From an uncultured Clostridia bacterium (GTDB taxonomy: Bacteria; Bacillota; Clostridia; Christensenellales; Borkfalkiaceae), in NCBI GenBank assembly GCA_947628675.1, contig CANRAR010000003.1, positions 11,114-75,113 on the forward strand: a stretch of DNA of 64,000 nucleotides. Direction: 5' to 3'. The notes beneath the pieces are model-generated. The model did not search any database and was not told the origin of the DNA. It saw nothing but the letters and a program-made list of their open reading frames with translations. The position numbers and the translations under genes were made by a program. Positions 1,988 through 57,451 of this stretch are shown one piece after another (position 1 is the first letter of the stretch; each line of letters begins with the position of its first letter).

Positions 1988-3400
1988 TTATACAGTTTCC
2001 AAATTGATGAGCGAGGAATTTCCGCTCTTGCCGTTGGGGGTGCCGCCCGTGATGACGATGACGTCGCCCTGCTGCACGAGCCCGCTTTCGACTGCGGCGC
2101 GCTTTGCAAAGTGGAACAAAACGTCCACCGAGAAGTATTCCTCGGAGAGGACGGGCAGAACGCCCCAAGAGAGGGCGAGTTTTCTATAACTCTTCTCGTC
2201 CGTCGTCATGCCGATGATGTCGATGTTGGGGCGGAAGCGGGAGACCATCTTGGCTGTCCCGCCCGTGCGGGTGCAGACGACGATGGCCTTCGCCTTCACA
2301 TCGTGGGCGAGGAGGCAAGCCGAGTGCGAGAGGGCGTCCGAGAGCCCGCGGATGAGGTATTCCTTGTCCTCGACGTATTGGATGTACTCCGTCTTGTTCT
2401 CCGCCTGCTCGGCGATGCGCGCCATGGCGGCAACGGCCTGCACGGGGTATTCGCCCGCGGCGGTTTCGCCCGAAAGCATGATGGCGGAGGAACCGTCGTA
2501 CACAGCATTGGCAACATCGGAAATTTCCGCACGGGTGGGGCGGGGCTGGTGGATCATGCTCTCCAGCATCTCCGTCGCCGTGATGCACCGCTTGCCCGCC
2601 TTACGGCAGGCGGTGATGATGGTCTTTTGAATATCGGGCAACTCCTCATAGGGAATTTCCACGCCCATGTCGCCGCGGCCGATCATGATGCCGTCGGAGA
2701 CCTTCAGAATCTCATCGAGATTGTTCACGCCCGCGCGGTTCTCGATCTTTGCGATGAGGTCGATGTCCGTACAGCCGTTCTCTTTGAGGAAATTTCTTAC
2801 GTCCAGAACGTCCTGCGCCTTGGAGACGAAGGAGCAAGCCACAAAATCCACGCCGTGCTGAATACCGAAGAGGAGGTCGGCCTTGTCCTGCTCGGAGAGA
2901 TAGATAAGGTCGAGTTGCTTCTCGGGGAAGAACATGGACTTGCGGTTGGAGAGTTCGCCGCCGATAACGACTTTGCAGATGACGTCGGGCGCCTTGACTT
3001 CCACAACTTCAAACACCATGAGCCCGTTGTTGAGAAGAATTTTGTCCCCGGGGTTCATGTCGTTGCAGATATTTTTGTAGGAGACGGAGACGCGGTGCTC
3101 GTCGCCCTCTATTTCGTGCGTCGTGAACGCGAAGGTGTCGCCCTCTTTCAGGAACACCTTGCCCTCTTTGAAGGTGCGGATGCGGAACTCGGGGCCCTTC
3201 GTGTCGAGCAGAATGGGCAGCGGGATGTTCTTCTCCGCGCGGACTTTTTTGATGGCGGCGATCTTCTTCGCGTGGTCCTCATGGGTGCCGTGCGAGAAGT
3301 TGATGCGCGCAACGTTCATGCCCGCGTCCGCCATGGCGGCGATGATCTCCTCCGTTTCGGAAGAGGGGCCGAGCGTACATACGATCTTTGTCTTTTTCAT
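1988..3400 (-). CDS. pyk: Pyruvate kinase
   Basis: MKKTKIVCTLGPSS..., INFSHG and MIGRGDMGVEIP motifs. Start moved to the second ATG (3400), which has a GAGGGGGA RBS 6 nt upstream. Confidence 0.95.
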   Translation of the reverse strand: MKKTKIVCTLGPSSETEEIIAAMADAGMNVARINFSHGTHEDHAKKIAAIKKVRAEKNIPLPILLDTKGPEFRIRTFKEGKVFLKEGDTFAFTTHEIEGDEHRVSVSYKNICNDMNPGDKILLNNGLMVFEVVEVKAPDVICKVVIGGELSNRKSMFFPEKQLDLIYLSEQDKADLLFGIQHGVDFVACSFVSKAQDVLDVRNFLKENGCTDIDLIAKIENRAGVNNLDEILKVSDGIMIGRGDMGVEIPYEELPDIQKTIITACRKAGKRCITATEMLESMIHQPRPTRAEISDVANAVYDGSSAIMLSGETAAGEYPVQAVAAMARIAEQAENKTEYIQYVEDKEYLIRGLSDALSHSACLLAHDVKAKAIVVCTRTGGTAKMVSRFRPNIDIIGMTTDEKSYRKLALSWGVLPVLSEEYFSVDVLFHFAKRAAVESGLVQQGDVIVITGGTPNGKSGNSSLINLETV

Positions 3401-3495: not shown

Positions 3496-3963
3496 TCCGA
3501 GCGGACTACGCGGTCGCGGCGCGCTATACGCGCGATGAGGAAAGTCCGGGCATCGCAGGGCAGGACGCCTGATAACGTCAGGTGGGGGCGACCCTAAGGA
3601 AAGTGCAACAGAAATAGACCGCCTTGTATCCTCTTTCGCCTTTAAGGGCTCCCGAAAAAGATTGCGAAGCAAGATTTTTTGGGAAGAGGAGAAGCAATCG
3701 AACGAAAATTGCTCTTTGCGTGAGCGAAGAGCAGGAAGTGAGATTTGCTTCGACGAGGCAAGGATGGAAAGGCGAGGTAAGAGCTCACCGACGGGACGGT
3801 AACGCCCCGTGCCATGTAAACCCCGTCCGATGCAAGTTTGGGATCTTCTCACATAGGGTTGCCCGCCCGGGGAGATCCGTGAATAACGCTGGAGCCTATC
3901 GGTGACGGTAGGCGTAGATAAATGACCGCGCTCGACAGAACCCGGCTTACAGGTTCGCTCGTA
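3496..3963 (+). ncRNA. rnpB: RNase P RNA, bacterial type A, with expanded P12
   Basis: Conserved blocks: GAGGAAAGTCCGGGC (3537-3551), AGTGCAACAGAAA (3602-3614), GGTAAGAGCTCACC (3776-3789), ACAGAACCCGGCTTAC (3935-3950). P1 pairing 3498-3506 with 3953-3961. Extended -10 TGGTATAAT at 3479-3487. Confidence 0.9.
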
Positions 3964-3965
3964 TC

Positions 3966-4001
3966 CCACGCCCGCCCCGCTTTTTTGCGGGGCGGGCGTG
4001 G
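3966..4001 (+). terminator. GC-rich hairpin just after rnpB (15-bp stem, TTTTTT loop, no U-tail)
   Basis: CCACGCCCGCCCCGC-TTTTTT-GCGGGGCGGGCGTGG read directly. The lack of a 3' T-run makes the terminator role uncertain. Confidence 0.35.
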
Positions 4002-4023
4002 ATATAAGCGGACTTTACGAAGA

Positions 4024-4196
4024 GGGCTCCCAAAAAAGATTGCACAGCAAGATTTTTTGGGAAAGAGGAGCCGCAACGGAGTGCAGTTGCCCTTTGCCTT
4101 TGGGCGAAGGGCTGAAAGCGAAGTTTGCGGCGACGAGGCTTACAGGTTCGCTGTTCCGCATTTTGCGGGGCGGGCGTGGATATAAGCGGACTTTAC
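4024..4196 (+). repeat. Copy of the P12-like dispersed repeat (4024-4139) fused to a second copy of the rnpB 3' end plus hairpin (4138-4196)
   Basis: 4024-4139 runs parallel to rnpB 3646-3759 (GGGCTCCC-A-rich-GATTGC..GCAAGATTTTTTGGG-AAGAGGAG ... CGACGAGGC). 4138-4196 repeats 3945-4018 (GGCTTACAGGTTCGCT ... GCGGGGCGGGCGTGGATATAAGCGGACTTTAC). Confidence 0.75.
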
Positions 4197-4231: not shown

Positions 4232-5074
4232 ATGGAGCAAACATCGGAAAATCAAACCGCGGAGCAAAATGAAATTCGGGCGAAGGCGGAGGAGTGCCTG
4301 CGCAAAAAATTCCATAAGGCGATCTTTTCCAAATTCACGAAGGCCGTCGTCACCTATAAATTGTTGGAGCCCGAAGATAAAATTGCCGTCTGCATTTCGG
4401 GCGGCAAGGATTCCATGCTCATGGCAAAACTCTTCCAAGAGTTGCAGCGCCACCGCAAATTTCCCTTTGAACTAAAATTCCTCGTCATGGATCCCGGGTA
4501 CAGCGCGGAGAACCGCGCCCGCATCGAAAAAAACGCCGCGCTGCTCGGCGTACCGATTTCAATTTTCGAGACGGACATCTTCGCAAGCGTGTACCCCGTG
4601 GAAAAATCGCCGTGCTACCTCTGCGCGCGGATGCGGCGGGGCAATCTCTACGCCAAGGCAAAATCGCTCGGGTGCAACAAAATTGCGCTCGGGCACCACT
4701 TCGACGACGTCATCGAGACCATTTTAATGGGCATTTTGTACGGCGGGCAGGTGCAGACGATGCTGCCCAAAGTGAAGAGCGAAAATTTCGAGGGGATGCA
4801 ACTCATCCGCCCCATGTACCTCATCCGCGAGAAGGACATCATCGCGTGGCGCGACTACAACAAACTGGAATTTTTGCGCTGCGCTTGCAAATTCACCGAC
4901 GGAAGATATGAGGACGGCAAGCGCAAAAAGGTGAAGGAACTCATCGCAAATCTTGCCAAGGACGACCCCGAGATCGAGCAGAATATTTTTCGGAGCGTGG
5001 AGAACGTGAGCCTTTCCATGGTGGTGGAATACAAGGATAAAAACGGCGTTCGCCACCGCTTCGACGAGGAATAG
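4232..5074 (+). CDS. ttcA: PP-loop ATPase, tRNA 2-thiocytidine synthase TtcA family
   Basis: SGGKDS PP-loop, CYLCARMRRG and GHHFDD motifs. Start taken at ATG 4232, in frame within track ORF 3998..5074. The upstream 234 nt is repeat DNA. TGGTATAAT -10 at 4217-4225. Confidence 0.85.
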   Translation: MEQTSENQTAEQNEIRAKAEECLRKKFHKAIFSKFTKAVVTYKLLEPEDKIAVCISGGKDSMLMAKLFQELQRHRKFPFELKFLVMDPGYSAENRARIEKNAALLGVPISIFETDIFASVYPVEKSPCYLCARMRRGNLYAKAKSLGCNKIALGHHFDDVIETILMGILYGGQVQTMLPKVKSENFEGMQLIRPMYLIREKDIIAWRDYNKLEFLRCACKFTDGRYEDGKRKKVKELIANLAKDDPEIEQNIFRSVENVSLSMVVEYKDKNGVRHRFDEE

Positions 5075-5210
5075 GAAAATTCCGAACGGATTTTTGAAGG
5101 AATTTGACGGAAATTTGCGCGGAGTTTTTTGCGAGATTTTCGGGCTTTGACGGAATTTTGGGTGGAATTTTTAAGAAATTTTATCGCGCGGAAAATTGAA
5201 AAAACGGGGG
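5075..5210. repeat. Array of about 8 degenerate GGAAWTTT units spaced 13-17 nt apart
   Basis: GGAAAATTCC, GGATTTTTG, GGAATTTGAC, GGAAATTTGCG, GGAGTTTTTTG, GATTTTCGG, GGAATTTTGG, GGAATTTTTAAG, GGAAAATTG read in series. Confidence 0.5.
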
Positions 5211-5237
5211 ATAAAAAAATAAAATTTTCCACTTAAA

Positions 5238-5308
5238 GCGCCCCGCTGCTCCGCGCGCTGCCGCCGCCCTCGCGGCAGCCGCGCGCGTTGCAGCGGGGCG
5301 CTTTTTTT
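5238..5308 (+). terminator. Long compound GC hairpin followed by T7
   Basis: Outer arms GCGCCCCGCTGC (5238-5249) and GCAGCGGGGCGC (5290-5301), inner arms GCGCGCTGCCGC / GCGGCAGCCGCGCGC, then TTTTTTT. Confidence 0.55.
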
Positions 5309-5424
5309 CACAAGGCGCACTCGCTTCACGCTCTTTTCTCTTTCCACAATGTAATGGTACCACAAATTTTTCGCCCTGTCGGGTGTATATGCCATGTTTT
5401 TTGAAAAAAGTCGGAAATTTTTTT

Positions 5425-5699
5425 AAGATACGCTCGCCCGCGCCCGCCGCGCTCTGCGCGACGGGCGCGGGTTCGGTATGAGGGGAAGGAAGGGGAGAGG
5501 GGGGAGCGGGGAGCGGGAAGGAAGCAAAAGCAACCTCTCATTCGGAGAAAAACTCCGCATATCATAGGTCGCCTTTCCTGAAAGCCATAAGGAAGGCTCC
5601 CATGAGGGGGCGAGAGAGGAAAGCGCGCGGGGAGGGGGTAAGATACGCTCGCCCTGCGCCCGCGGCAAATGCCGCGGGCGTAGGGCTCGGTATGAGGGG
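5425..5699. repeat. Cluster of short dispersed repeats: R1 (AAGATACGCTCGCC...CGGTATGAGGGG) at 5425-5485 and 5640-5699; R2 (CTCCGCATATCATAGGTCGCCTTTCCYGAAAGCCATAAGGAAGGCTCCC) at 5553-5605
   Basis: The same sequences recur elsewhere in the window (R1: 6743, 11051, 40368, 42496; R2: 43309-43360). Confidence 0.75.
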
Positions 5700-6013
5700 C
5701 GGGGCGGAATGGCGCGGGCGATAAATTTTGCGGAAAATCTTGTAAAATTTGTGCAGCTGAATTCGGCAAACAATGTCCACCAAAAATAGAGATTTTTTAT
5801 AACTGTGTCGGAGCAATACTCGATTCGTTAAGCAAAAGAGAAGCCTGAAATGAAACATAACAAAAGGCCGTTCATCGAAAGCGAGAGGATTTATTTTATA
5901 TATGCGAGGTTCGGAAAATGAAATCTAATTTGGTAAAATGACGCAAACCTCTTTGATATCGGGAAAAAATGTGATATAATAAAATAGATCGGTAATAGAA
6001 TCGAGGTATTCAA

Positions 6014-6346
6014 ATGCGCTTTTTGGGTAACAAAACCAGAATGTTAAGCAATATTCAGTCGGTAATAGAAGAGAATAATAGCATAAATCTTGATGTGCCT
6101 AACAATATTGTAGCACTATGCCCGAATTGCCATTGTCAAATTCATTTAGGAAGTCGCCAAGCAAGATTGAAAATTTTAAGTGAATTGTATGTAAGGAATA
6201 AAGCGAAATTGCTCGCATTGAATCCTGGCTTAACATTGTCTGTTTTAGCCGCGTATTACAATATTGGGTTGGGGGAGGAAGAAGAACGGGATTGGTTGAA
6301 ACGAGCAGAAAAAATCGTGTCCGAAAAGAAGTATTTTCACGGCTAA
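6014..6346 (+). pseudogene. Remnant ORF joining a DNA-methyltransferase-like N-terminus to the C-terminal half of an HNH nuclease motif
   Basis: MRFLGNKTRMLSNI resembles adenine-methylase N-termini. NNIVALCPNCHCQIHLG is the distal half of an HNH motif, and the proximal catalytic His block is missing. Lies in an AT-rich patch (~5780-6450). Confidence 0.4.
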
Positions 6347-6573
6347 AAGTATGAATCGAAATGAAATACAAAATAGAGATATAGAGAAATTCAACGGTAA
6401 AAAAACAGGATTGAATTTGAAAAACAAATAGATGAAAGGGATGAAAGCATTTGTTGCGCCGCCGCGGCTCATAGAGCCGCGGCGGCGCGTAGTATGTGGG
6501 GGGCAAGATGAGCGGCGCGGCGGTGTCCGCGCCGCGGGGCATTGGTAGAAACAGGAGAGAACCCCCTACCCTA

Positions 6574-6659
6574 CCCTCCCCCCTTAAAAAGGGGGGAGGC
6601 AAGAGAGGGCGATTGCCCCTCCCCCCTTAAAAAGGGGGGAGGCAAGAGAGGGCGATTGC
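6574..6659. repeat. Perfect tandem duplication, 2 x 43 nt
   Basis: CCCTCCCCCCTTAAAAAGGGGGGAGGCAAGAGAGGGCGATTGC occurs twice back to back (6574-6616, 6617-6659). Each unit contains the hairpin CCCCCCTT-AAAAA-GGGGGG. Confidence 0.9.
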
Positions 6660-6677
6660 CGCGGTGGCGTTTGGATG

Positions 6678-7544
6678 TTATGCGGCGGGAGTGTTCTCGT
6701 CCGAGGTGGGCTCCTCCGCTTGAGAGAGGGGTTCGGCGGGGGAAGATACACTCGCCCCCTTCGTGGCATACTTCGTCGCTTCGCTCCTCGTGCCGTCCTT
6801 AGTCGAAAATGGTGCGGACGGGGCGGTATGAGGGGCTGTGAGATTCTGCGCGGCGGGCTCCTGCGTTGCGGCGGGCTTCTTCGCGCCAACAAGTTTGAGG
6901 GCGGGGATCATGAGGCCGCCCAGGGAGTTCCCCAAGATGACGAGCCAAATGAAGAGGAGCGCTTCGCCCGAGGCGATGCCCGAGGCCGCGAAGTAGAACA
7001 TATCGGCGATGGAGTGCTCGTAGCCGCTCAAAATGAAGGCGGGTATGCAGAACACCACGCCGAGCGGCGTTTTATGGTTGCGGTAGATGTCAACGGCGAG
7101 AAAGACGAGAATGCCGCAGAAGAACGCCCTGACGAGCGTCTGCCACCATTCCTGCGATTGCAGTTTGCCGTCACAGAGCGCAAACGCCGCGTCCTTCAGC
7201 GAGGGGACGGCGGCGGCGAGCAGGTACCCACACGCCACGGTGCCGATGAAGTTCCCGAGGAGCCCCAACAGCATGACGGAGATGTCCTCTTTGGAGTGTT
7301 TTTCGAGCACATAGCCGATTTTGCCCGTGTACAGGGAGAAACCCTTGATGCAGATGCATAGCAGCGCCGTGCAGAAGAACACCGCGCCCACGTATTTGCC
7401 GATGGGGGGCATCTCGCCATAGCAGGCGAGGAACACCGCCCCGCCGATGGAGATGAGCGCACCCGCGAGGAAGCCGTCGATGATCTTTTTGAGAATGTCG
7501 AGCACGGTTGCCTGCGCGCCGCCCTTTGTTTGCCGCTCTTTCAT
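6678..7544 (-). CDS. Formate/nitrite transporter (FNT) family membrane protein
   Basis: GYEHSIADMFY (FNT signature-like) and six hydrophobic segments. Start at ATG 7544 (MKERQTKGG) with RBS AAAGGAG. The track ORF extends further upstream into repeat element A. The last ~65 codons run through repeat DNA. Confidence 0.85.
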   Translation of the reverse strand: MKERQTKGGAQATVLDILKKIIDGFLAGALISIGGAVFLACYGEMPPIGKYVGAVFFCTALLCICIKGFSLYTGKIGYVLEKHSKEDISVMLLGLLGNFIGTVACGYLLAAAVPSLKDAAFALCDGKLQSQEWWQTLVRAFFCGILVFLAVDIYRNHKTPLGVVFCIPAFILSGYEHSIADMFYFAASGIASGEALLFIWLVILGNSLGGLMIPALKLVGAKKPAATQEPAAQNLTAPHTAPSAPFSTKDGTRSEATKYATKGASVSSPAEPLSQAEEPTSDENTPAA

Positions 7545-7592
7545 GGTTTTGCTCCTTTTTTCGCCGTTTTTCGTCGGATTTTTCCGCTGAAA

Positions 7593-7621: not shown

Positions 7622-7726
7622 AGGAAATTTTGGGGATAAATGGGGGCGGGCGCCGTGGCGAGGAGGCAGGTCGAAGATGAGGCGTGGCGGTTGGTTCATG
7701 CGTTTGGATTGATGTGGATGGGCGCG

Positions 7727-8063
7727 GTGCAACGCTTAACGGGTCGCTTGCTCCTCCCGCGCTCCCGCTTGGGGCCCTCCTCATTGCGTGAGGCTTCAAA
7801 GGGCGAAACCTCACGCAACGAGGAGGCTCAGCCGCTCCGCGGGTGGAGCAGTGCACCATGCTCAACAGCCCAGTGGGCTGTGAGCGCACCGCGACAGGAG
7901 CGCCGGAGGGCGCGTCCCGCCCGCACTATTTTCAACCAAGGGCGGCACGAGCCGCAGGCGAAGTACGGGGTTTGCGGCGGTTCCTGCCGACGCAAACGGG
8001 GTAGCGGCAAAAAGACGATGATGATAGAATTCTACTGTGAGTAGATACAAATCGGGACGCATC
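7727..8063 (+). repeat. Structured non-coding element, copy A (337 nt; GTGCAACGC...ATCGGGACGCATC)
   Basis: Near-identical by eye to the reverse complement of 32487-32862. The last ~115 nt are also at 41601-41717. Multiple perfect hairpins and no conserved ORF. The strand label is only a relative orientation. Confidence 0.8.
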
Positions 8064-8299
8064 AAAAAAACGAGCGGGCGGGAGGTGCGGCAGTGGGAAT
8101 GGACGGGACGATTTTATTTAAGGGGGAGGGCAGAGAAGCCCATGGGAGAGAAACACACAGGAGCATAGAAAAAGTGGCGCGGGGCAAAGAGAAGAATTTG
8201 TGGCGAGCATATGAAGGGATAGATCTTCTCCCTATATAAATTTTGCACGGGGGTTGTATTTGTTAAAGCGGCGTGGTATAATTGTAACGCGGTGAACAA

Positions 8300-9070
8300 A
8301 TGAGGATCAAATGGCTCGGGACTGCGACGCTGCTGCTCGAGAGCGGCGCAACGCGCATCCTCCTCGACCCCTATCTTCGGGGGAGAAACAAAAAACTTGC
8401 GCCCATTTCGCCCGACGAGACGGCGGATGTGCAGGCGATCTTTATCACCCACCCCCACCTCGACCACTTTGCCGACGTGAACGCGTGGACGGAGCGCGGC
8501 GTGGAGCGGGTATTCGTCTCGGAAAACGGCATCAGAAATGCGGAAAGGAACGGCATGGACGTCTCCCGTATGCTTCCGCTCGGCTCCGATGAGATGCACC
8601 GTGTGGGCGATTTCACCGTGCGCACCTTCAAGAGCCGTCACTGCAAATTCGACGTTCTGACCGTACTGCGCGTATTTTTCTCGCCGCGCGCGTGGGCGCA
8701 CTTTTTCGGCACCTGTGCCTTTTTGCACCGCGTACGGAAGTTCCCCCTCGACGGCGACATCTACGCGCTCGAGATCTCCGACGGCGAAAGGACGGTGCTG
8801 GCGCTGGGCTCGGCGGGCATGGACGAGCGGGTGCACTATCCCGAGGGCGCCGATCTTCTCGTGTTTCCCTATCAGGGGAGGGTGCGCATGGATAAGTATA
8901 TGCGGAAGTTCTTGCGCGCTATGAAGCCCAAGAAGGTCATGCTTGACCACTTTGACGATGCGTTTCCGCCCCTCACGCACCGCGAGAACACCGGGCGGTT
9001 TGCCGCCGCGGCGGAGGAAGAGGGGACGGAGGGGTTCGTGCCCGCAGAGGGGCAATGGTACGAGGTGTAA
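8300..9070 (+). CDS. MBL-fold metallo-hydrolase
   Basis: HPHLDHF metal-binding motif. 256 aa. TGGTATAAT -10 upstream at ~8273. Confidence 0.8.
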   Translation: MRIKWLGTATLLLESGATRILLDPYLRGRNKKLAPISPDETADVQAIFITHPHLDHFADVNAWTERGVERVFVSENGIRNAERNGMDVSRMLPLGSDEMHRVGDFTVRTFKSRHCKFDVLTVLRVFFSPRAWAHFFGTCAFLHRVRKFPLDGDIYALEISDGERTVLALGSAGMDERVHYPEGADLLVFPYQGRVRMDKYMRKFLRAMKPKKVMLDHFDDAFPPLTHRENTGRFAAAAEEEGTEGFVPAEGQWYEV

Positions 9071-10995: not shown

Positions 10996-11113
10996 TTTGC
11001 CGCCCGCCGCCCGCCGTGCCCCTGTGGGGCGCGGCGGGCGGCGGGCGGCAAAAGATACACTCCCTACGGTCGGTATGAGGAGAGGATACACTCACTGCGG
11101 TCGGTATGAGGGG
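10996..11113. repeat. 57-nt GC palindrome (10996-11052) followed by two tandem R1-type units (11051-11080, 11081-11113)
   Basis: TTTGCCGCCCGCCGCCCGCCG...CGGCGGGCGGCGGGCGGCAAA, then AAAGATACACTCCCTACGGTCGGTATGAGG and AGAGGATACACTCACTGCGGTCGGTATGAGGGG. Confidence 0.75.
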
Positions 11114-23868: not shown

Positions 23869-23941
23869 GTTTTCCCCATACACTCACGCGCCGCCGCGGC
23901 ATAGCCGCGGCGGCGCGTGAGTGTATCTTTTCTTCTTGTGT

Positions 23942-26192: not shown

Positions 26193-26456
26193 ACAAAAGC
26201 GACGACGAAGAGGAGTAACCCGAAAAACGCCTTGTTCAGTGAGCGGGCAGAGTGCGAACCCCGCAGGACGCTTCGGGCGAAAAACACTTCCGAGCTGCCA
26301 CCCGAAAGAGATCGAGTAGGGAGAGCCGCCGCCCTGCGTTACGGGGCAGCCCCTTTGCGGGGGAAAAAGGGATTGCCTTTGGGCAATAAGTTAGGTGGCA
26401 CCGCGGATACAGCGCTATCCGTCCTGATGAAAAAAGGACGGGCGGCGCTTTTTTCG
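26193..26456 (+). promoter_or_regulatory. T-box riboswitch leader, probable Asn (AAC) specifier
   Basis: T-box sequence AGTTAGGTGGCACCGCGG at ~26389-26406. Terminator arms GCGCTATCCGTCC / GGACGGGCGGCGC followed by TTTTTT (26412-26455). Candidate specifier loop GAAA-AAC-A at ~26279-26286. Confidence 0.8.
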
Positions 26457-28059: not shown

Positions 28060-28245
28060 ACGGTGCGCCCTTGCTCGCCCCCTCCCGAGGAGGGGGGTAG
28101 GGGGTGTGGCAATCCTCATACGCTCGCCCCGCGCCCCGTTTTTTCGCGTCATTCTGAACCGCCGCCCGCGCTCCGCCCCCGCTGGTGCGGGGGCGGAGCG
28201 CGGGCGGCGGTGAAGAATCCCGATGGGCGAAGTCCGCCCCCATCC
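28060..28245. repeat. Cluster of short dispersed repeats in reverse orientation (R1-, R3- and palindrome-type)
   Basis: CCTCATACGCTCGCC (R1 reverse complement). GCGTCATTCTGAACCGCCGCCCGCGCTCCG and GAAGAATCCCGATGGGCGAAGTCCGCCCC (R3 reverse complement; compare 42370-42475 and 43141-43258). Palindrome CCGCCCGCGCTCCGCCCCCGC-TGGT-GCGGGGGCGGAGCGCGGGCGG. Confidence 0.7.
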
Positions 28246-31747: not shown

Positions 31748-32179
31748 ATGAAAGTCAACGTGAAAAAACTCAACGAAAACGCCAAACTTCCCACTTACGG
31801 CTCGGAATTTGCCGCCGGCGCCGACCTATACGCCGCCGAGGGCATGGAGATCCCCGCGGGCGAAACGCGCTTCGTGCACACGGGCATCGCGGTGGAATTG
31901 CCCGCAGGCACGGTTGGGCTCGTGTACGCGCGGAGCGGCCTCGCCTCCAAGCAGGACCTCGCGCCCGCCAACAAGGTGGGGGTCATCGACTGCGACTACC
32001 GCGGCGAAATCATCGTCTCCCTCCACAACCACGGCAAAGAGCCGCGCACGGTGAGCGCGGGCGACCGCATCGCCCAGCTCGTCGTCGCCCCGTATTACAC
32101 CTGCGAATTTGAAGAGGCGGCCTCGCTCTCCTCAACCGTCCGCGGCATCGGCGGCTTCGGCTCAACGGGCACAAAATAG
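31748..32179 (+). CDS. dut: dUTP diphosphatase
   Basis: AAGADLYA, GVIDCDYRGEI and RGIGGFGSTG motifs. Start at ATG 31748 inside the longer track ORF. Confidence 0.93.
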   Translation: MKVNVKKLNENAKLPTYGSEFAAGADLYAAEGMEIPAGETRFVHTGIAVELPAGTVGLVYARSGLASKQDLAPANKVGVIDCDYRGEIIVSLHNHGKEPRTVSAGDRIAQLVVAPYYTCEFEEAASLSSTVRGIGGFGSTGTK

Positions 32180-32205: not shown

Positions 32206-32263
32206 CCGTCGGCAGGAACCACCGCAAACCCCGTACTTCGCCTACGGCTTGTGCCGCCCTTGG
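32206..32263 (-). repeat. Fragment D of the structured element family (about 58 nt shared core, then divergent to ~32440)
   Basis: CCGTCGGCAGGAACCACCGCAAACCCCGTACTTCGCCTACGGCTTGTGCCGCCCTTGG matches 32553-32611 of copy B with 3 substitutions. Confidence 0.65.
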
Positions 32264-32451
32264 AGTGTAAGTAGTGCGCGCAGGGTGGCGGAAGTGGATT
32301 CCGCCTAAGGCACATAATTTACAGTAAAGACGGCAAAGCGGTTGTCTAACAAGCGGCGGGAGTGTCGCTTCTTATTATCCTGCGAACGGGATAGGGGATA
32401 AGACAGACAGCCCCCATATACTTACAACAAATGATATTACCAAGAGAATAA

Positions 32452-32483
32452 AAAAGATAAAAGATTAGATTATTTTATCTTTT
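32452..32483. repeat. Perfect 11-bp A/T hairpin abutting copy B
   Basis: AAAAGATAAAA-GATTAGATTA-TTTTATCTTTT. Copy B begins 3 nt later. Confidence 0.7.
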
Positions 32484-32486
32484 TAT

Positions 32487-32862
32487 GATGCGCCCCGATC
32501 CATATCTACTCACAGTAGAATTCTATCATCATCGCTCATTTTGCGGCTCCCCGTTTGCGTCGGCAGGAACCGCCGCAAACCCCGTACTTCGCCTGCGGCT
32601 CGTGCCGCCCTTGGTTGAAAATAGTGCGGGCGGGACGCGCCCTCCAGCGCTCCTGTCGCGGTGCGCTACTACGTGCCGCGCTTAGTAGACAATGGTGCGC
32701 GCGGGGCACAGCCCACTGGGCTGTTGAGCATGGTGCACCGCTCCACCCGCGGAGCGGCTGAGCCTCCTCGTTGCGTGAGGTTTCGCCCTTTGAAGCCTCA
32801 CGCAATGAGGAGGGCCCCAAGCGGGAGCGCGGGAGGAGCAAGCGACCCGCATAGCGTCGCAC
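32487..32862 (-). repeat. Structured non-coding element, copy B (376 nt, inverted relative to copy A, with a 39-nt extra hairpin)
   Basis: The reverse complement aligns with 7727-8063 along its whole length. The extra segment carrying hairpin CTACTA-AGCGCGGCACG-TAGTAG sits at ~32657-32695. Confidence 0.8.
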
Positions 32863-32961
32863 CAACTCCGTCAACAATATGCCCAAATCGCGGAGCAAGC
32901 GATTTGCCGTATCATTCGGCGGGCGTCTATCACGAAACTCCACCAAAAGGAAAAAATAGCA

Positions 32962-35852: not shown

Positions 35853-35971
35853 TCTACTAATCGTAGAGTTTTATTGTGTGGCGCACGGAAAACGGGCAAG
35901 ACCACTCGAAAAGAAGTAGGTTTACTTTTTCGGCAAAAAAAGCTATAATGAGCCTGCACAGGAGGACATTT

Positions 35972-37846
35972 ATGGGTATTTTTAGTAAAAAGCACAGTAT
36001 CGGAAAAACGATTGCCGAGCTTCGCAAATCAAAAGGTTGGACGCAGGCGGAGCTTGCGGAAAAGTTGCAGGTCAGCGATAAAGCGGTCAGTAAATGGGAA
36101 AAGGATAACGGCGCGCCAAGCATTGAATTTTTCCCCGCGATTGCAGAACTTTTCGGTGTGAGTATCGATTACATCATGACGGGGAAAGAACCAGAAAGGG
36201 AAGTCATTACGATTTCCAAAGCCGAGCTTTGCGCCAAAAATGACGATCCAGCCATGCTCGACGGTATCGATATCAATCATAAAGACGAGCAAGGAAAGTC
36301 GCTTGTAGATTACATTCTGCAATATCAGAGTTTTAAGGTCTTTGTAAAACTCTGCGAATCCCAAAAGGGAAATATCGCCAAATTTCCAATTCTCGATGCA
36401 ATCAAGCTGTCGATTTTAACAAATCGTCTTGATTTACTTCGTGGCGAACAATTTGAGGTTGAGATAAGGCATTATCTGCGTTGGAAGTTTGAAACCGAGG
36501 AAGAACTTTTATCATTATTGCCCGAAGCCGAAGAATCAGGGTTTAATGATAGAGAATCCAAAACGCTATGTATTTTAACGGATGATATTTTTAAGACGAT
36601 TGTCTGTGACAAGAGAATCAGCGAAGATACGTTAAATAAAATATTAGGCAAACAACCTAATCGGCAATGCGTATGGTATCATACATTTCCATATTTGATA
36701 CATCAGAGTTATTTGAATAAAGAGGATAAAATGTTGCGCAGACTATTGACTCTCTCCGTTGAGAACAATCAATACGCCTATGATAACATGAAATTGGTGC
36801 GCAATAGATATGATGGCGGATTGAATTACACACCAAATTTCTTTTTTATGGCGGCGTATAACTACAAGGGGCATGGATTAGTTCGTATTTTGGAAGAAAC
36901 CATTAAGCTCGCGCTCGAAAGAGGCGATTTCGCGCTTTTTAAGGAGTTCGACGACATTAACAGAGCGATTCAAGCATATTACGATTTTAAGCCGTATATC
37001 GCTTCCGAGTACGAGATCCGCATGGCAAAATTAAAGGCGGACAAGTCTGTATCGCAAGATGAGTTGATAGTTCAATCAACCATTCACGACGGAATCATTA
37101 ATATTGACGAATTGCTTGCTACAAAAAATTTGCCGCTCATCAAGAAAGCGCTCTCAACCTACGATATTCATCCAATCGAGCCGCTTTGCCGAATCTTCCA
37201 AAATAAGCAATGGCGAGCGCTATTTGAATATGCCGTAGATAGCAAAAACGATAGTCTTGCAAGGGCTGTTATGAAGAATGACGAAAAAGGGATGGAGAAA
37301 GAGATCGCCGCTTTGTTTTTACGAACTGTCACGAGGAGCGGATATCCGAGTGTCAACAACAAACAATTCGTTGTCAGAAAAGCGAATAGGTTCAAAACGA
37401 ACGAGGACTATCATGCGAGCGATAATTTGAAGGTAGAGTCAATTGTGGAATATCTCAATTTTTATCGTCAGCAAATTATTTTTGATTATTCTTTCGAAGA
37501 AGAAAAAATCAAAGCCGTCAACGAACTGACGAAAGAATATTTTGAATCCGAACTCAAAAAAGGCAACACGGAAATCGTCATCATCAAGCTGTGCGTTCGG
37601 TTGGAAGCAATCCTTCGTTCATCGTATCATTACGAAGGCGACTTTTCGGAAATGCTCGATAAGTATTGCTCGCAGCACGGACAAGAGGACGACGGATGGG
37701 GATATAATCGAGAAGCCAAATTTGTAAAATATCTTCAAAAACTTCGGATGTGCCGCAATAGTATCGTCCACGCCGAAAAGAAGAAAGATATGCTTACCCT
37801 TGAAGAAATTCAATATTGTATCGATTATATCTGCAATTTGAAATAA
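35972..37846 (+). CDS. HTH(XRE) / ankyrin-like / helical protein with a C-terminal HEPN-like Rx4H motif (624 aa)
   Basis: Start at ATG 35972 with a CAGGAGGA RBS. N-terminus GKTIAELRKSKGWTQAELAEKLQVSDKAVSKWEKDNG is an HTH_3 sequence. DINHKDEQGKSLVDYILQY is ankyrin-like. C-terminus LQKLRMCRNSIVHAEKK has R-N-S-I-V-H at nt 37754-37771. AT-rich codon usage unlike the neighbouring genes. Confidence 0.7.
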   Translation: MGIFSKKHSIGKTIAELRKSKGWTQAELAEKLQVSDKAVSKWEKDNGAPSIEFFPAIAELFGVSIDYIMTGKEPEREVITISKAELCAKNDDPAMLDGIDINHKDEQGKSLVDYILQYQSFKVFVKLCESQKGNIAKFPILDAIKLSILTNRLDLLRGEQFEVEIRHYLRWKFETEEELLSLLPEAEESGFNDRESKTLCILTDDIFKTIVCDKRISEDTLNKILGKQPNRQCVWYHTFPYLIHQSYLNKEDKMLRRLLTLSVENNQYAYDNMKLVRNRYDGGLNYTPNFFFMAAYNYKGHGLVRILEETIKLALERGDFALFKEFDDINRAIQAYYDFKPYIASEYEIRMAKLKADKSVSQDELIVQSTIHDGIINIDELLATKNLPLIKKALSTYDIHPIEPLCRIFQNKQWRALFEYAVDSKNDSLARAVMKNDEKGMEKEIAALFLRTVTRSGYPSVNNKQFVVRKANRFKTNEDYHASDNLKVESIVEYLNFYRQQIIFDYSFEEEKIKAVNELTKEYFESELKKGNTEIVIIKLCVRLEAILRSSYHYEGDFSEMLDKYCSQHGQEDDGWGYNREAKFVKYLQKLRMCRNSIVHAEKKKDMLTLEEIQYCIDYICNLK

Positions 37847-37857
37847 GGAGAAAAACC

Positions 37858-38616
37858 ATGAATAAATATCAAGAATATCTCTTAAAGGGGATTTTATCAT
37901 CCAATTTTCTTTTTTATCGGTGCTGTCTCATTGGGGAATTCAGTAATGCTAAAAAATTTTATGGCAAATTTGACAAAGATAACGATACTTTCACAATTAC
38001 GCAAGATGATGACATTAACCTTGTGGAATATAGTTTAATTATATGGAAAAAAATCGATTTTATTGAAAATGTTTATATCTGGAAAAACAAGCAGTGGGAA
38101 AAAGTAGCAAATACAGAAATAGAACTTACAAATTCTACGGGCAAAGAGAGTTTTCCCTGTTACCGCATCGACGTTGATTTTCGCAATAGGATAGATAAAC
38201 TTCGCTTTACTTTCAAAGGGGGGTTGGCAGATGATTACATTCTGAAATTGCAATATGTCGAAGCCGATAAAGAAGCATACTATGCGGAACAGGCAAAAAC
38301 AGCCCGTGAAAATCTTATTAAGGCTGCGGCAATCAAGCATTCAACGGGAAATGATTTGGTTAACATCTATTTTCAACCGTGTTGCGACGAATACGAACGG
38401 GCGGAAATTTCTTTATACCATGACGGTCAAATGCTTGCGAAATACAAAGTTGAAGACGGCGCGTATTTCAAATCGATCGGCGGTCTTGCTTATGGAGCCT
38501 ATGAATATATTGTAAAACAATTTGGCAAAAATGATAAATTGCTTTTAGAAACCGAGAAAATCAAATTTTCTATCAGTCGCCCGAATTATGGCGGGGAGCA
38601 CATAGTTGTCATTTAG
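37858..38616 (+). CDS. Hypothetical protein (252 aa), operon partner of the HTH-HEPN-like gene
   Basis: ATG 37858 lies 11 nt after the upstream stop, with an AAGGAG RBS. I recognise no motif. AT-rich like its partner. Confidence 0.65.
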   Translation: MNKYQEYLLKGILSSNFLFYRCCLIGEFSNAKKFYGKFDKDNDTFTITQDDDINLVEYSLIIWKKIDFIENVYIWKNKQWEKVANTEIELTNSTGKESFPCYRIDVDFRNRIDKLRFTFKGGLADDYILKLQYVEADKEAYYAEQAKTARENLIKAAAIKHSTGNDLVNIYFQPCCDEYERAEISLYHDGQMLAKYKVEDGAYFKSIGGLAYGAYEYIVKQFGKNDKLLLETEKIKFSISRPNYGGEHIVVI

Positions 38617-40175: not shown

Positions 40176-40207
40176 ATCGTTCTCCTAATATGATTTTTTA
40201 TCTTTTT

Positions 40208-40272
40208 CTTTCCCCCGCCCGCGCGCGCTGTTCCCCCCTACGGGGGGAACAGCGCGCGCGGGCGGGGGAAAG
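40208..40272. repeat. 65-nt perfect GC palindrome centred on CCCCCCTACGGGGGG (probable ispDF terminator)
   Basis: CTTTCCCCCGCCCGCGCGCGCTGTTCCCCCC-TAC-GGGGGGAACAGCGCGCGCGGGCGGGGGAAAG. A sibling palindrome is at 57225-57291. Confidence 0.8.
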
Positions 40273-40384
40273 AAATTTTTTCTCCGCGCCGCCGGATTTC
40301 TTTTTCCGTTTGGCATTTGTTCCGCCTTTTTGCAAGGGGATGGGGTGTGGTCGGACTTCATTTGAGGAAAGATACTCTCGGCTT

Positions 40385-41542
40385 CTACGTAGCCTTGGTA
40401 TGAGGGGCGGATAAGGGTTTACCGAGCAGGACGGTTGCGTAGGCGGTGATGCCGCGGCCTTCGCCGATGTAGCCGAGTTTTTCGTTGGTGCCCGCGGCGA
40501 CGGCGACCGCGTCGCAGTGGAGGGCGCGGCGCAGGTTTTCGCGCATCTTTTCGATATAGGGCGAGAGGCGGGGGAGTTCGCATAGAATGGAGATGCTCGC
40601 GTTCTTCACGCAAAATCCGCGCGCCTCCACCGTCTGCATGACGCGGGCGAGCAGTTCCATGCTGTCCGCGTCTTTGTAGGCAGGGTCGGTATCGGGGAAG
40701 TGGAAGCCGATGTCCCGCTCGCCGATGGCGGAAAGCAGCGCATCCATGAGGGCGTGGACGGGAACGTCGCCGTCGCTGTGCGCCTCCAACGCGCGGTTGG
40801 ACGGAATGACGACGCCGCACAGGGTGATGTAGTTCAGATTGAGACGGGCGATGCCGCGGTCGATCTCATCCTGATGCGCGAAGGCGTGGGTATCGACGCC
40901 GAAGCCGACGCGCTCCGCGGGCGAAAAATCGGCAATATATGTGAGTTTTTTGTTGGCGTGGTCGCCGAGGAAGAGGTGAGGCGGCTCCGCGTAGCGGGCA
41001 TAGATCCCGCTGTCGTCGGTGAACGTTTCGCCGCTCTCCATCGCCCTTTCGTAGGCGGCGAGAAGGGGCGCTGTGCGGAAGCCCTGCGGGGTCTGGACGG
41101 TGAAGACGCTTTCACGTTTGGGCGTTTGGTAGCCGCCCTCCGCGAGCACGACGGTGTCCGTCGCGGGCAGGGCGCAGACGCCGCTGCCGTAGGCCTCCAC
41201 GCTTGCGATGCAGTCCTCGATGACTTTGGGCGTGACGAAGGGGCGCGCCGCGTCGTGGATGAGCACGACGTCGCCATGGGTCTCCTTCAAGCAGGCAAAG
41301 ACGCTGTCCGTCCGCGTTTCGCCTCCGCGGACGGTGCGCGCCTGCGGGTGGGGAGCAAGCAGGGGGAGGATGCGGGGCTCATCCTCCTCGCGGCAGGCGA
41401 CGAGCAGTTCGTCCGCATACGGCGCGAACGCCGAGAGGGTGTGCGCGAGGACGGGCATTCCGTTTAGATCGTGCAGGATTTTGTTTTCGGGCAGGTGCGC
41501 CCGTGTGCCGCTTCCCGCGGCGCAGAGAATGACGGTGAGCAT
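40385..41542 (-). CDS. ispDF: Bifunctional IspD/IspF (MEP cytidylyltransferase / MEcPP synthase)
   Basis: N-terminus VILCAAGSGTR (IspD P-loop). C-terminal half has GFGVDTHAF...HSDGDV (IspF). Start at ATG 41542. The upstream part of the track ORF is repeat element C. Confidence 0.93.
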   Translation of the reverse strand: MLTVILCAAGSGTRAHLPENKILHDLNGMPVLAHTLSAFAPYADELLVACREEDEPRILPLLAPHPQARTVRGGETRTDSVFACLKETHGDVVLIHDAARPFVTPKVIEDCIASVEAYGSGVCALPATDTVVLAEGGYQTPKRESVFTVQTPQGFRTAPLLAAYERAMESGETFTDDSGIYARYAEPPHLFLGDHANKKLTYIADFSPAERVGFGVDTHAFAHQDEIDRGIARLNLNYITLCGVVIPSNRALEAHSDGDVPVHALMDALLSAIGERDIGFHFPDTDPAYKDADSMELLARVMQTVEARGFCVKNASISILCELPRLSPYIEKMRENLRRALHCDAVAVAAGTNEKLGYIGEGRGITAYATVLLGKPLSAPHTKAT

Positions 41543-41600
41543 AGAGGGTTCCTTTTTTATGGTGTTGGTTTGTGGGGCAAGGGAAAATGCACTACCTCGG

Positions 41601-41717
41601 CGCGAGCCGTAGGCGAAGTACGGTGGGGCGACGATTTCTGCCGACGCAAGCGAAAGTGGCAAAAACTGACAATCATGTATCAATTCTACTGTGAGTAGAT
41701 ACAGATCGGGACGCATC
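41601..41717 (+). repeat. Structured element, copy C (only the terminal ~115 nt)
   Basis: GAGCCGTAGGCGAAGTACGG...CTGCCGACGCAAGCG...AATTCTACTGTGAGTAGATACAGATCGGGACGCATC matches the right end of copy A. Confidence 0.75.
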
Positions 41718-42019
41718 GGTAAAGAGAAAGAAAATTTTTACTTTTATTTTTAATTCACACTTTTTAATCATTTTTTATATTTTATATTTTCTTTCTTCTT
41801 TTTTCATTTTTCTTTACTTTTTTATTTTTTTCTTGGCTTCTTTCTTTTATTGACTACGATGCCGATGCCGGTACCCACGTCGGAATACGGGTCTATCCGC
41901 ACTTCACGTGGGGCACCCGTTTCTTTGCCGTTTTCATTCACATCGGAGTGTCCCGTCCGTTTTTCCACGAAAGTGCCGACAAGAGGGGCGCCTCGCGTTT
42001 CCGCTCCATGGGTGGGCGG

Positions 42020-42262: not shown

Positions 42263-43473
42263 AGTTCTCCTTGGGGGTAGATGGGCAACCCCCACCTGTC
42301 GCGGCAAAGCCGCGCCACCCGCCCCCTTCAAAGGGGGCAGGTCGTTGTTCCACCCCCCTCCCGAGAGGGGGCGAGACGGACTTCGTTGGTCGGGATTCTT
42401 CGCTACGCTCAGAATGACGCGGTAAGCAAGCGAGGGGCGGAATGCGCGGTAACCGAGCGCGGGGCGGATGACGCGGGGGGGGGAGATAGAGCAGAAAGAT
42501 ACGCTCACCGCCAGAGGCGGCTCGGTATGAGGGACGGGGCAGGGGCGGAAATGAGGGGGAAAATCAACTTTTTTTGTCGATTTTGCGAAAAAGTTTTTTT
42601 CCGTGCGCAAAACCGTTTGACATCTTGTGCGCCCTTTGCTATAATTCCATACTGTATCACTATGTAAAATGCATATTTATGCGTTCTCGCGGGAAAGCCT
42701 TTCCTTATTTATATGGAGACCCGCCCGCTGTTACACCTCTATTATAGCGTAATTTTGCCGTGAAGTAAAGGGTAGGTGACAGGTTTTTTTCGGGGAAAGA
42801 CGGAAAATTTTTCGCGGGTGTGATATGAGGGGACGGACTTCGTTTTTCGGGATTCTTCCGTCGCTGTGCTCTCTACTTCGCGCTACGCGCTCCGTGCCGC
42901 GCTTAGTAGATACAGGGTTCCCAAAAAAGATTTGCGTAGCAAAGGTTTTTGGGGAAGAGGAGGCGCGGGCGTGAAAGCAAAGCGTTTGCCGCAGGCGGAC
43001 GCTTGCGAAGTTCGCCCTGCGCCGACGAGCGCGCGGGGCAGAATGACGCGTAAAACAGGCGCGGGGCGAGGGAAAATATAACCCCCACCACCGCCTACGG
43101 CGGAGCCGCCCCCTTGCAAAGGGGGCAGCCATGGGCAGGCGGGGCGAGACGGACTTCGTTTTTCGGGATTCTTCGGTCGCTGTGCTCCCTCAGAATGACG
43201 CGGTAAGCGCGCGTCGAGCGAAAGACGCGGCGACCCGAGCGCGGGGCAGAATGACGCGGAAGGTTAAGGGGATGCCCCTCCCCCTGTGTCCCCCATTGCG
43301 GAGAAAGGCTCCGCATATCATAGGTCGCCTTTCCCGAAAGCCATAAGGAAGGCTCCCCAAAGGGGAAGGGGATGAGAACAAGGTGGCAGATCAATTTCGG
43401 ACATTTCGATTTTTATCGATGAAAAGATATACTCGGTAAATCGCCAAATGATAACATCATTATAAGGAGTTAT
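42263..43473. repeat. 1.2-kb non-coding mosaic of dispersed repeats upstream of rpoB
   Basis: R3 at 42370-42475, 42831-42880 and 43141-43258. R1 at 42496-42533. P12-like repeat at 42915-43030. R2 at 43309-43360. CCCCCTT(C/G)CAAAGGGGGCAG hairpins at ~42323 and ~43110. Only short repeat-derived ORFs. Confidence 0.8.
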
Positions 43474-57200: not shown

Positions 57201-57224
57201 GAGCGGCGGCGCGGAAAAAAATTA

Positions 57225-57291
57225 TCCCTCCCCCCGCGGCGCGCAGTTCTCCCCCCTACGGGGGGAGAACTGCGCGCCGCGGGGGGAGGGA
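57225..57291. repeat. 67-nt perfect GC palindrome centred on CCCCCCTACGGGGGG
   Basis: TCCCTCCCCCCGCGGCGCGCAGTTCTCCCCCC-TAC-GGGGGGAGAACTGCGCGCCGCGGGGGGAGGGA. Related to 40208-40272. Confidence 0.85.
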
Positions 57292-57451
57292 TAAAAGGGA
57301 AAACAAAAATGTGGGAAGAAGGGCAAATGCCGCGGCGGGAGCGCATCTTGTCTTTCAAATGGAATTCGAGCAAAAGAGCGAAAATTTTTTGGGAAAAACT
57401 GTCTCAATCGCAAAAAAATATGCTATGATACGGGTTAGGACGGAGGAAAGC

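Follow-up and report, generated by a model that had tools for sequence, protein, structure and literature searches.

A probable new family of mosaic interspersed palindromic repeats in uncultured Clostridia of the rabbit gut

Rickettsia palindromic elements (RPEs) are tolerated inside stable RNA genes, and the short tandemly repeated repetitive (STRR) sequences of cyanobacteria, a genome-wide repeat, fill the loop of helix P12 in RNase P RNA while the conserved core of that RNA stays intact. RPEs also insert in frame into open reading frames (ORFs), and the BOX, RUP and SPRITE elements of pneumococci cluster and insert into one another (PMC10969869). REP/REPIN families, with their REPIN/RAYT systems, persist with a conserved consensus (PMC3116915). 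Here we describe a hairpin-dense, multi-copy repeat in a 64-kb stretch of DNA (contig CANRAR010000003.1, positions 11,114 to 75,113; hereafter the window) from an uncultured Clostridia lineage of the rabbit gut, and its copies in the window are designated A to E. These elements probably represent, at a rough probability of 0.6, a new REP-, BIME-, BOX- or RPE-like family of mosaic interspersed palindromic repeats restricted to a narrow clade of these bacteria. The family is absent from the libraries searched and is best classed among such repeats, not as a discrete scaffolded RNA, an omega-RNA module or a retroelement. It is modular, its modules nest, its presence is patchy and its local hairpins covary; it has no coding capacity, transcription signals or strand bias.

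The copies were delimited by comparing positions 7700-8080, which hold most of copy A, with the window by blastn. The best match was B (32863-32480, minus strand; 86% identity over 385 columns, E = 1.6e-136), followed by C (41598-41717, plus; 80% over 123, E = 3e-25), D (32284-32207, minus; 88% over 78, E = 1.6e-22) and a fragment, E (6825-6787, minus; 85% over 39, E = 9e-7). An earlier reading of the letters alone (hereafter the sequence-only reading) had proposed a repeated element of ~340-380 nt represented by A to D, all of which were recovered; E was absent from its list. The sole large difference between A and B is an extra segment of 39 nt, termed X1, that occurs only in B. Elsewhere, the two agree at 223 of 225 core positions, 43 of 47 in the head, 20 of 29 in the tail and 34 of 38 in T. 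The ends proposed earlier had to be moved outwards. Similarity to a paralogous copy in a related species (contig L040, 835-996) places the left limit of A at ~7686-7703, about 40 nt upstream, while on the right the similarity runs past the supposed terminal GCATC, by ~35 nt into the A/T tract for B and C, and A is followed by a second tail-like segment at 8064-8125. In B and C, GCATC does adjoin an A/T tract, as the sequence-only reading had supposed for every copy; in A it is followed by only seven A's. Across ~130 kb from five genomes, the census comprises two long forms and three fragments in the window, at least three copies in the single 3.3-kb L040 contig, and 15 units of the module X described below.

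Comparing B with all clade sequences, together with a reading of L040, divided this copy into nine modules: head, M1, M2/M3, X1, a 'mid' segment, X2 with its mini-hairpin, L, tail and T (Table 1). As in BIME- or BOX-type mosaics, these distinct short motifs are also found alone and in other orders and numbers. Head and M1 occur by themselves at L040 868-996 (868-1020 as a short form of head, M1 and tail), and a head+W+M1' arrangement occupies L040 1113-1340 (1113-1370 with its tail). Aligned with A, the L040 ortholog carries a ~100-nt insert containing W in its head, possesses X1 and lacks T. The latter module is shared by A, B and C and stands by itself twice in the sister species L072 (9891-9931 and 9945-9977) and once in L075 (5029-5060). 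The M2/M3, 'mid' and L segments are restricted to long forms. One M2 pair is disrupted by A7850 in copy A; the L hairpin is the same in A, B and L040, has a degenerate 5' arm in C and has lost its outer stem in D.

Table 1. Coordinates of the repeat copies and their modules in the window.
Feature	Position	Strand	Remarks
W module in P12 loop of RNase P RNA (gene 3498-3965)	3630-3746	+	~117-nt insertion in cmscan alignment
Copy E: X unit, stem CCGTCC/GGACGG, in frame within FNT ORF C-terminal tail	6785-6824	-	nhmmer E 4.5e-12
Copy A, long form: 5' extension, head, M1, M2, M3, X2, mini-hairpin, L, tail, T; no X1	7686-8063	+	blastn, alignment
Head module (GGTGCRACGC..GGGTCGCTTGCTCCTC..)	7727-7775	+	in A, B and L040 868-, 1113-, 2693-
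M1, large hairpin, 7 + 10 bp, one A.C mismatch	7776-7826	+	inverted repeat 7776-7797/7805-7826
M2 (7832-7851) and M3 (7866-7880) hairpins	7832-7880	+	found only in A, B and L040 2848-3145
X2 unit: stem 7917-7922/7940-7945, 17-nt loop GCACTATTTTCAACCAA, CACGAG, mini-hairpin GCC-GCA-GGC (7951-7959), GAAGTA	7914-7965	+	
L hairpin (GTTTGCGGCGG..CCGACGCAAAC)	7970-7997	+	inverted repeat 7970-7980/7987-7997
T module: hairpin TCTACT-GTG-AGTAGA (8031-8045) and ATCGGGACGCATC	8018-8063	+	
Second tail-like segment (GCGGGCGGGAGGTGCGGCAGTGGGAATGG..GATTTTATTTAAGGGG)	8064-8125	+	resembles L040 short-form tails (..GGGCGGGGGTGCGGCAGGAATGGGCGAGGATGATTTTTTCAAG)
Copy D: X2-type unit and 5' part of L; 28-105 nt downstream of dut, antisense to dut	32207-32284	-	
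Copy B, long form with X1 (32668-32707) and X2 (32598-32636)	32446-32900	-	blastn, nhmmer
Copy C, partial: mini-hairpin, degenerate L, tail, T, A/T extension	41598-41756	+	blastn
5'-truncated X unit joined to W module	42891-42912	-	
W module (palindrome CCCAAAAAAGATTTGC..GCAAAGGTTTTTGGGG and ~70 nt)	42914-43030	+	also nested in head of L040 copy

The commonest module is X, of which an nhmmer census aligned 15 instances from four genomes (five in the window, three in L040, four in L072 and three in L075); an additional unit was found at the end of contig L071. In each unit, a stem-loop is followed by the hexamer CACGAG, by a small GC hairpin whose loop is GYA, and by GAAGTA(G). The 17-nt loop, GCACYATTNTCNACYAA, is almost invariant, while the 6-bp stem occurs as CCGCCC/GGGCGG, CCGCGC/GCGCGG, CCGTCC/GGACGG or CCACGC/GCGTGG. 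In the 15-instance alignment, 93% of the cells are paired, three of the six pairs are compensatory and none of 500 shuffles attained the score. With its covarying stem and invariant loop, the X hairpin looks like a protein recognition site.

Predicted folding further defined what is conserved in these elements. The hairpin density noticed earlier was borne out: the sense strand of 7685-8070 folds at -183.8 kcal/mol (RNAfold, z -5.9), and an inverted-repeat tool found the arms of the M1 and L hairpins. The antisense strand reaches -182.5 kcal/mol (z -7.3), and these nearly equal energies indicate no strand asymmetry. In M1, a UA pair is replaced by GC in two L040 copies, and a fourth copy with a different distal arm still folds (-31.9 kcal/mol, z -6.4). 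Two longer-range features of the sequence-only reading fared less well. Its closing helix (7753-7765/7897-7909), drawn around a three-hairpin junction, is present in A with 92% complementarity; in L040 only 6-7 of its 13 pairs remain, as read from the alignment, and its 5' arm survives in short forms that have no 3' arm. Its helix at 7952-7968 is broken in the diverged L072 copies, where, as everywhere else, the alternative GCC-GYA-GGC mini-hairpin is kept. Conservation resides in individual local hairpins and not in a three-way junction or a global fold.

As in the BIME and REP sequences of Enterobacteria and in REPIN-RAYT systems (PMC3116915, PMC3337134), short GC-rich imperfect palindromes located in extragenic DNA are here combined into mosaics of varying composition, the family consensus is conserved across related species, and several units carry GTAG or CTAC beside or within hairpins. 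Most X units carry GAAGTAG after the small hairpin, two have GTAG ahead of hairpin 1, and the T hairpin reads CTAC-loop-GTAG. Position and orientation nevertheless differ from those of canonical REP, and GTAG stands on the other side of the small hairpin. In contrast to REP, where the stem sequence is conserved, X conserves a 17-nt loop on a covarying stem. X1 and X2 are arranged in tandem and in direct orientation in B, in L040 and in L075 (5554-5628), unlike the inverted doublets of REPINs. No RAYT (Y1 HUH) gene flanked by repeats was found in the window and ~60 kb of related loci, and the host belongs to the Clostridia and not to the proteobacteria. A second likeness is with the BOX, RUP and SPRITE elements of Streptococcus pneumoniae (PMC10969869), which share a Firmicute host, a boxA-boxB-boxC-type modularity with variable content, a bunched and inter-inserted arrangement, stable predicted RNA or DNA hairpins and the absence of an assigned mobilising enzyme. 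The family described here differs from them by the lack of any sequence similarity, by the set and sizes of its modules, and by a larger long form (340-420 nt) with a core unusually well conserved between species.

Two modules reside inside genes. The tail of the FNT transporter contains X, in frame, and the tolerant P12 loop of RNase P RNA contains W, a behaviour that recalls RPEs as a resemblance and not as homology. RPEs provide the precedent of a palindromic repeat tolerated in frame within a coding gene (PMC10969869; PMC1166351), but here there is one such case only, in an already repeat-derived disordered tail, with no conserved encoded peptide, and both sequence and host are unrelated. 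Copy E falls within a 78-nt in-frame length difference between the FNT tails of the window and of the L040 ortholog. The C-terminal ~65 residues of the FNT ORF (6678-6960, minus strand), past the Pfam domain, are encoded by repeat-derived sequence, and the ORFs of both species share the end ...PLSQAEEPxSDENTPA-stop despite the 78-nt block difference. The RNase P RNA gene (class A, 274.9 bits) reaches 468 nt because ~117 nt of W fill its P12 loop. By blastn, this insert matches 4023-4139 (78% over 118), 42914-42962 and L072 8417-8534, and overall the module recurs at 4023-4139, at ~42914-42966, in L040 and in L072. Unlike STRR insertions, it is a single palindromic module and not a series of heptanucleotide tandem repeats. 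Just downstream of the RNase P RNA gene, 4019-4196 is a partial pseudo-copy made of W, a repeat of the last ~20 nt of the gene and its terminator, with 3983-4018 and 4161-4196 being 100% identical.

All copies in the window have housekeeping genes as neighbours. Copy A is located between the FNT transporter (6678-7545, minus) and an MBL-fold hydrolase (8300-9070, plus), whereas D and B lie between dut (ending at 32179, plus) and trmB (32962, plus), antisense to both. Copy C lies between ispDF (40385-41542, minus) and an S4-domain gene, from which it is separated by an A/T-rich tract of ~130 nt (41720-41850), which stands out in a genome of 57% GC and has weak promoter-like sites on both strands. 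In L070 and L071, with 60-65% protein identity, the FNT/MBL spacer measures 85-160 nt and the promoters are back to back, so that the ~600 nt including A represent an insertion in the window/L040 lineage. The sister species L072 (87% ispDF identity, syntenic from rpoC to glutamine synthetase) has neither B nor D in its dut/trmB spacer and retains only T in its S4/ispDF spacer, which in L075 is 115 nt long and contains nothing. The long form occurs in two species and is absent at orthologous loci of four relatives (L070, L071, L072 and L075).

Database searches outlined a narrow distribution. A scan of GTDB genomes for the core pattern returned 53 loci, of which only L040 and L044 were real, both from 'Lapin' metagenome-assembled genomes (MAGs), the others being chance matches in high-GC genomes; the same species was present in rabbit samples of ENA and Logan. 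B had no match among PLSDB plasmids or INPHARED phages (blastn, distant setting), and exact-pattern scans yielded nothing real in IMG/VR and only two chance matches in JGI metagenomes. No Rfam family matched the element: at the gathering threshold, Rfam 15 recognised only the RNase P RNA and a T-box in the whole window, and even at E <= 10 copies A and B/D attracted only noise such as miRNA or snoRNA models, with no HEARO, Intron_gpII or group-II-D1D4 among them. A tRNA-derived origin was considered and rejected, as ARAGORN finds no tRNA in the window and the L044 match beside a tRNA-Arg fragment shares only CACGAGCCGCAGGCGAAGTACGG. In L044 itself (3120-3230 and 3572-3646), CACGAGCCGCAGGCGAAGTACGG lies between the halves of an apparent disrupted duplicate of the neighbouring tRNA-Arg(CCT) gene, a copy that ARAGORN does not call as a tRNA.

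How such a family might be built can be outlined from these comparisons. On this reading, A and B are long forms put together from the head, M1, X, T and tail modules, some copies having W nested inside them, and the modules may spread at the DNA level by either of two routes: displacement by a putative trans-acting enzyme that recognises hairpins, or recombination or gene conversion between existing modules. The ~265-nt core appears to have been copied by gene conversion between pre-existing head/M1...tail modules, which would account for the 99% identity of A and B in the core when head, tail and T are only 69-91% identical. Effects on the host would be passive and could arise from the hairpins themselves, through transcript ends and insulation between divergent promoters.

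Several observations weigh against such a repeat family. Only two long-form copies are present in ~80 kb of the source genome, the ~16 kb beyond the window (L078 and L079) having provided no further one, and no mobilising enzyme was found in the window and related loci. Inverted matches near the ends are weak (21 nt at 76%), the junctions show no target-site duplication and no parent insertion sequence was found; the hallmarks of a miniature inverted-repeat transposable element (MITE) are missing. No clean empty site marks the exact ends, the orthologous spacers being filled with other modules. A passive selfish remnant should have decayed, yet the core of ~265 nt stays 95.5% identical between species. 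From M1 to L, the window and the L040 species agree at 252 of 264 positions at the same locus and in the same orientation, as compared with 80 of 114 (70%) at fourfold-degenerate sites of the adjacent MBL gene and about 55-60% in the 5' flank of the element. Between the window and L072, a similarly distant species, the repeat modules of the orthologous S4-rpoB spacer have decayed to 70-76% identity, and fourfold sites of ispDF are 69% identical.

To account for this core conservation, the repeat model has to invoke selection, continuing gene conversion or transfer among species that live together. The favoured explanation is that gene conversion has repeatedly overwritten the core from a constrained family consensus, because copy A of a second assembly contains B-like states and identity is sharper in the core than in the arms; recent exchange between co-resident species and purifying selection on a real function are other possible causes. 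The B-like states come from contig ERZ27249651, which is 99.98% identical to the window over 11 kb and whose sole differences, the 39-nt X1 and two single-nucleotide polymorphisms, fall within A and are all three B-like; its B locus equals that of the window over the whole 782-nt dut-trmB spacer. The presence or absence of X1 was consequently discarded as proof of mobility, the difference reflecting either conversion of one copy by the other or a chimeric assembly. In Logan, contigs break off within A (window 8018) and within B (32820).

One alternative, which we regard as a minority possibility, holds jointly that the core is an undescribed functional RNA or single-stranded DNA element under selection, or that X, with its GCACYATTNTCNACYAA loop, CACGAG and GYA mini-hairpin, is the recognition site of a new hairpin-specific mobilisation or binding system in Clostridia. 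Such a putative system would differ from REP-RAYT and would insert modules in intergenic DNA, in protein tails and in the loops of stable RNAs. The option of purifying selection keeps a non-coding RNA (ncRNA) or functional-DNA interpretation alive at a low level. More specifically, the core (~7776-7997, with X1 in B) could be a multi-copy structured ncRNA gene, or another functional element under purifying selection, embedded amid repeats. This is improbable. The excess of core over neutral identity between species, the near-identity of A and B in the core as opposed to their arms, the strong fold z-score, the confinement of M2/M3, 'mid' and L to long forms and the co-orientation of 11 of the 15 X units with transcription of a neighbouring gene all speak for it. 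Against it, A and B are flanked by no sigma-70-like promoter or terminator, folding is as stable on the antisense strand as on the sense strand and, in the L040 copy, the closing helix is disrupted and a 100-nt insert is tolerated in the head. The element is also absent at the orthologous loci of the four relatives, X1 is optional and Rfam offers no relative; covariation is local and not global, and pairing is not strand-specific. The structured ncRNA with a three-hairpin junction that the sequence-only reading had proposed is therefore weakened by its independent modules, disrupted closing helix, two-sided folding and missing transcription signals, and retains in its favour a core far better conserved than neutral sites.

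The same reading had offered a non-autonomous mobile element, and in this broad sense it agrees with the lineage-specific copies, the orthologous sites that lack them, and the nesting in modules, in a protein tail and in RNase P RNA. Its particular examples are not supported. A non-autonomous insertion sequence (IS) derivative moved by a transposase encoded elsewhere, be it a palindrome-associated IS200/IS605-type element (PATE), possibly with a TnpB or IscB guide-RNA scaffold, or a classical MITE, is unlikely. It would fit the hairpins near both ends, the precise and scarless difference in X1 between copies, the weak 21-nt inverted match of the head (7750-7770) to 8068-8088 in the second tail-like segment (76% complementary), and the CTAC/GTAG hairpins of T and of X (ending in GAAGTAG), which recall the REP sites of Y1 transposases. 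On the sense strand, however, the small hairpin precedes GTAG, an arrangement opposite to that of canonical REP, and the unit is divisible into separately distributed modules. The left flanks of the 15 aligned X units have no common target motif, no target-site duplication was seen, and neither Y1_Tnp/TnpA, TnpB/OrfB, IscB/HNH-RuvC nor reverse transcriptase genes occur in the 64 kb of the window and the ~60 kb of related loci. HEARO and the omega RNAs of IscB and TnpB (IS200/IS605) are comparable in being multi-copy, 200-350 nt long, hairpin-rich, intergenic and often devoid of ORFs; the present repeats differ from them in having no covariance-model match at E <= 10 and no nuclease or transposase gene beside them, in lacking a conserved flank or guide junction, and in being divisible into modules that are independently distributed. 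They are likewise unlike a group II intron or an ORF-less retroelement, for neither an Intron_gpII or group-II-D1D4 match nor a reverse transcriptase domain was found in the window.

Less credible still is the view that these sequences are host cis-acting elements fixed for their usefulness, as terminators, RNA-stabilising hairpins, leader structures or insulators between divergent promoters. Copy A does sit between the back-to-back promoters of FNT and MBL, several X units stand in sense orientation 28-80 nt past stop codons (L072 11171, L072 16738 and L040 1507), and a weak promoter-like site in the A/T tract (41807-41779, minus) would place the reverse complement of C in the ispDF leader. 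Yet the unit occurs beside unrelated genes in varied orientations, B and D being antisense to both neighbours, FNT has its own perfect TTGACA-17-TATAAT promoter downstream of A (7621-7593, minus), and orthologous genes in relatives manage without the element. The idea of a small basic protein is effectively refuted: A (7640-8044) and B (32985-32536) do have in common a colinear sense frame, open for ~110-150 codons, contrary to the earlier statement that the copies share none, but it is not coding, since stops and frameshifts interrupt it in the L040 copy, it has neither a ribosome-binding site nor a start codon common to the two copies, the two positions at which the cores of A and B differ are both non-synonymous, none of 10 overlapping ORFs looked up exactly in a collection of 15 billion proteins was present or had ever been called as a gene, and a concatenated six-frame translation of B used as a protein query gave no match at E <= 1.

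Other features of the window deserve mention. The 1.6 kb at 5074-6678 contain no called genes and are packed with palindromes and tandem units (5235-5304, 5424-5485 resembling 5639-5699, 6456-6488 and 6560-6660); a low-GC patch within them carries a 110-aa ORF (6014-6346), probably a gene remnant, whose weak HNH motif (Pfam E 0.016) stays below threshold. Long near-perfect palindromes of 57-73 nt, 88-96% complementary, are found at gene ends (40205-40275, 57222-57294, 28151-28218, 10996-11052 and 23878-23926), the first two being mutually related (76-81%) and bordered by A/T runs; these probably act as bidirectional terminators and constitute a further repeat family. Between the S4-domain gene and rpoB, the 800-nt spacer (42650-43470) is a dense array of other modules (CGCGTCATTCTG..., GAAGAATCCCGAAAAACGAAGTCCGTC and GGGGAGG/CCCCTCC palindromes) common to L068, L070, L072 and L075. 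The T-box leader (26193-26429, 101.5 bits) is directly upstream of a glutamine-hydrolysing asparagine synthase gene (Asn_synthase and GATase_7). Finally, a low-GC island at 35876-38616, with third-position GC of 0.36-0.46 as compared with ~0.8 in its neighbours, encodes a 656-aa HTH_3/CI-repressor-like protein and a 266-aa protein without Pfam match. The equivalent position in L072, next to radA, holds different small genes (HTH_26, RelB-like), which marks this island as a variable, probably acquired region.

For genome annotation, these elements are to be masked as repeats and not taken for small RNA genes, for ORFs or for a portion of the FNT protein; short-read assemblies of these MAGs break at them, and chimeric consensus sequences can result. 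Mosaic palindromic repeats have been well studied in Proteobacteria, pneumococci and Rickettsia and hardly at all in gut Clostridia, where this clade displays the full set of behaviours: its modules nest, one of them resides in frame in a protein tail and another fills the P12 loop of RNase P RNA. The conservation of the X loop, together with the covariation of its stem, points to a putative specific recognition protein, and the conservation of the long-form core between species constitutes a concrete, testable anomaly.

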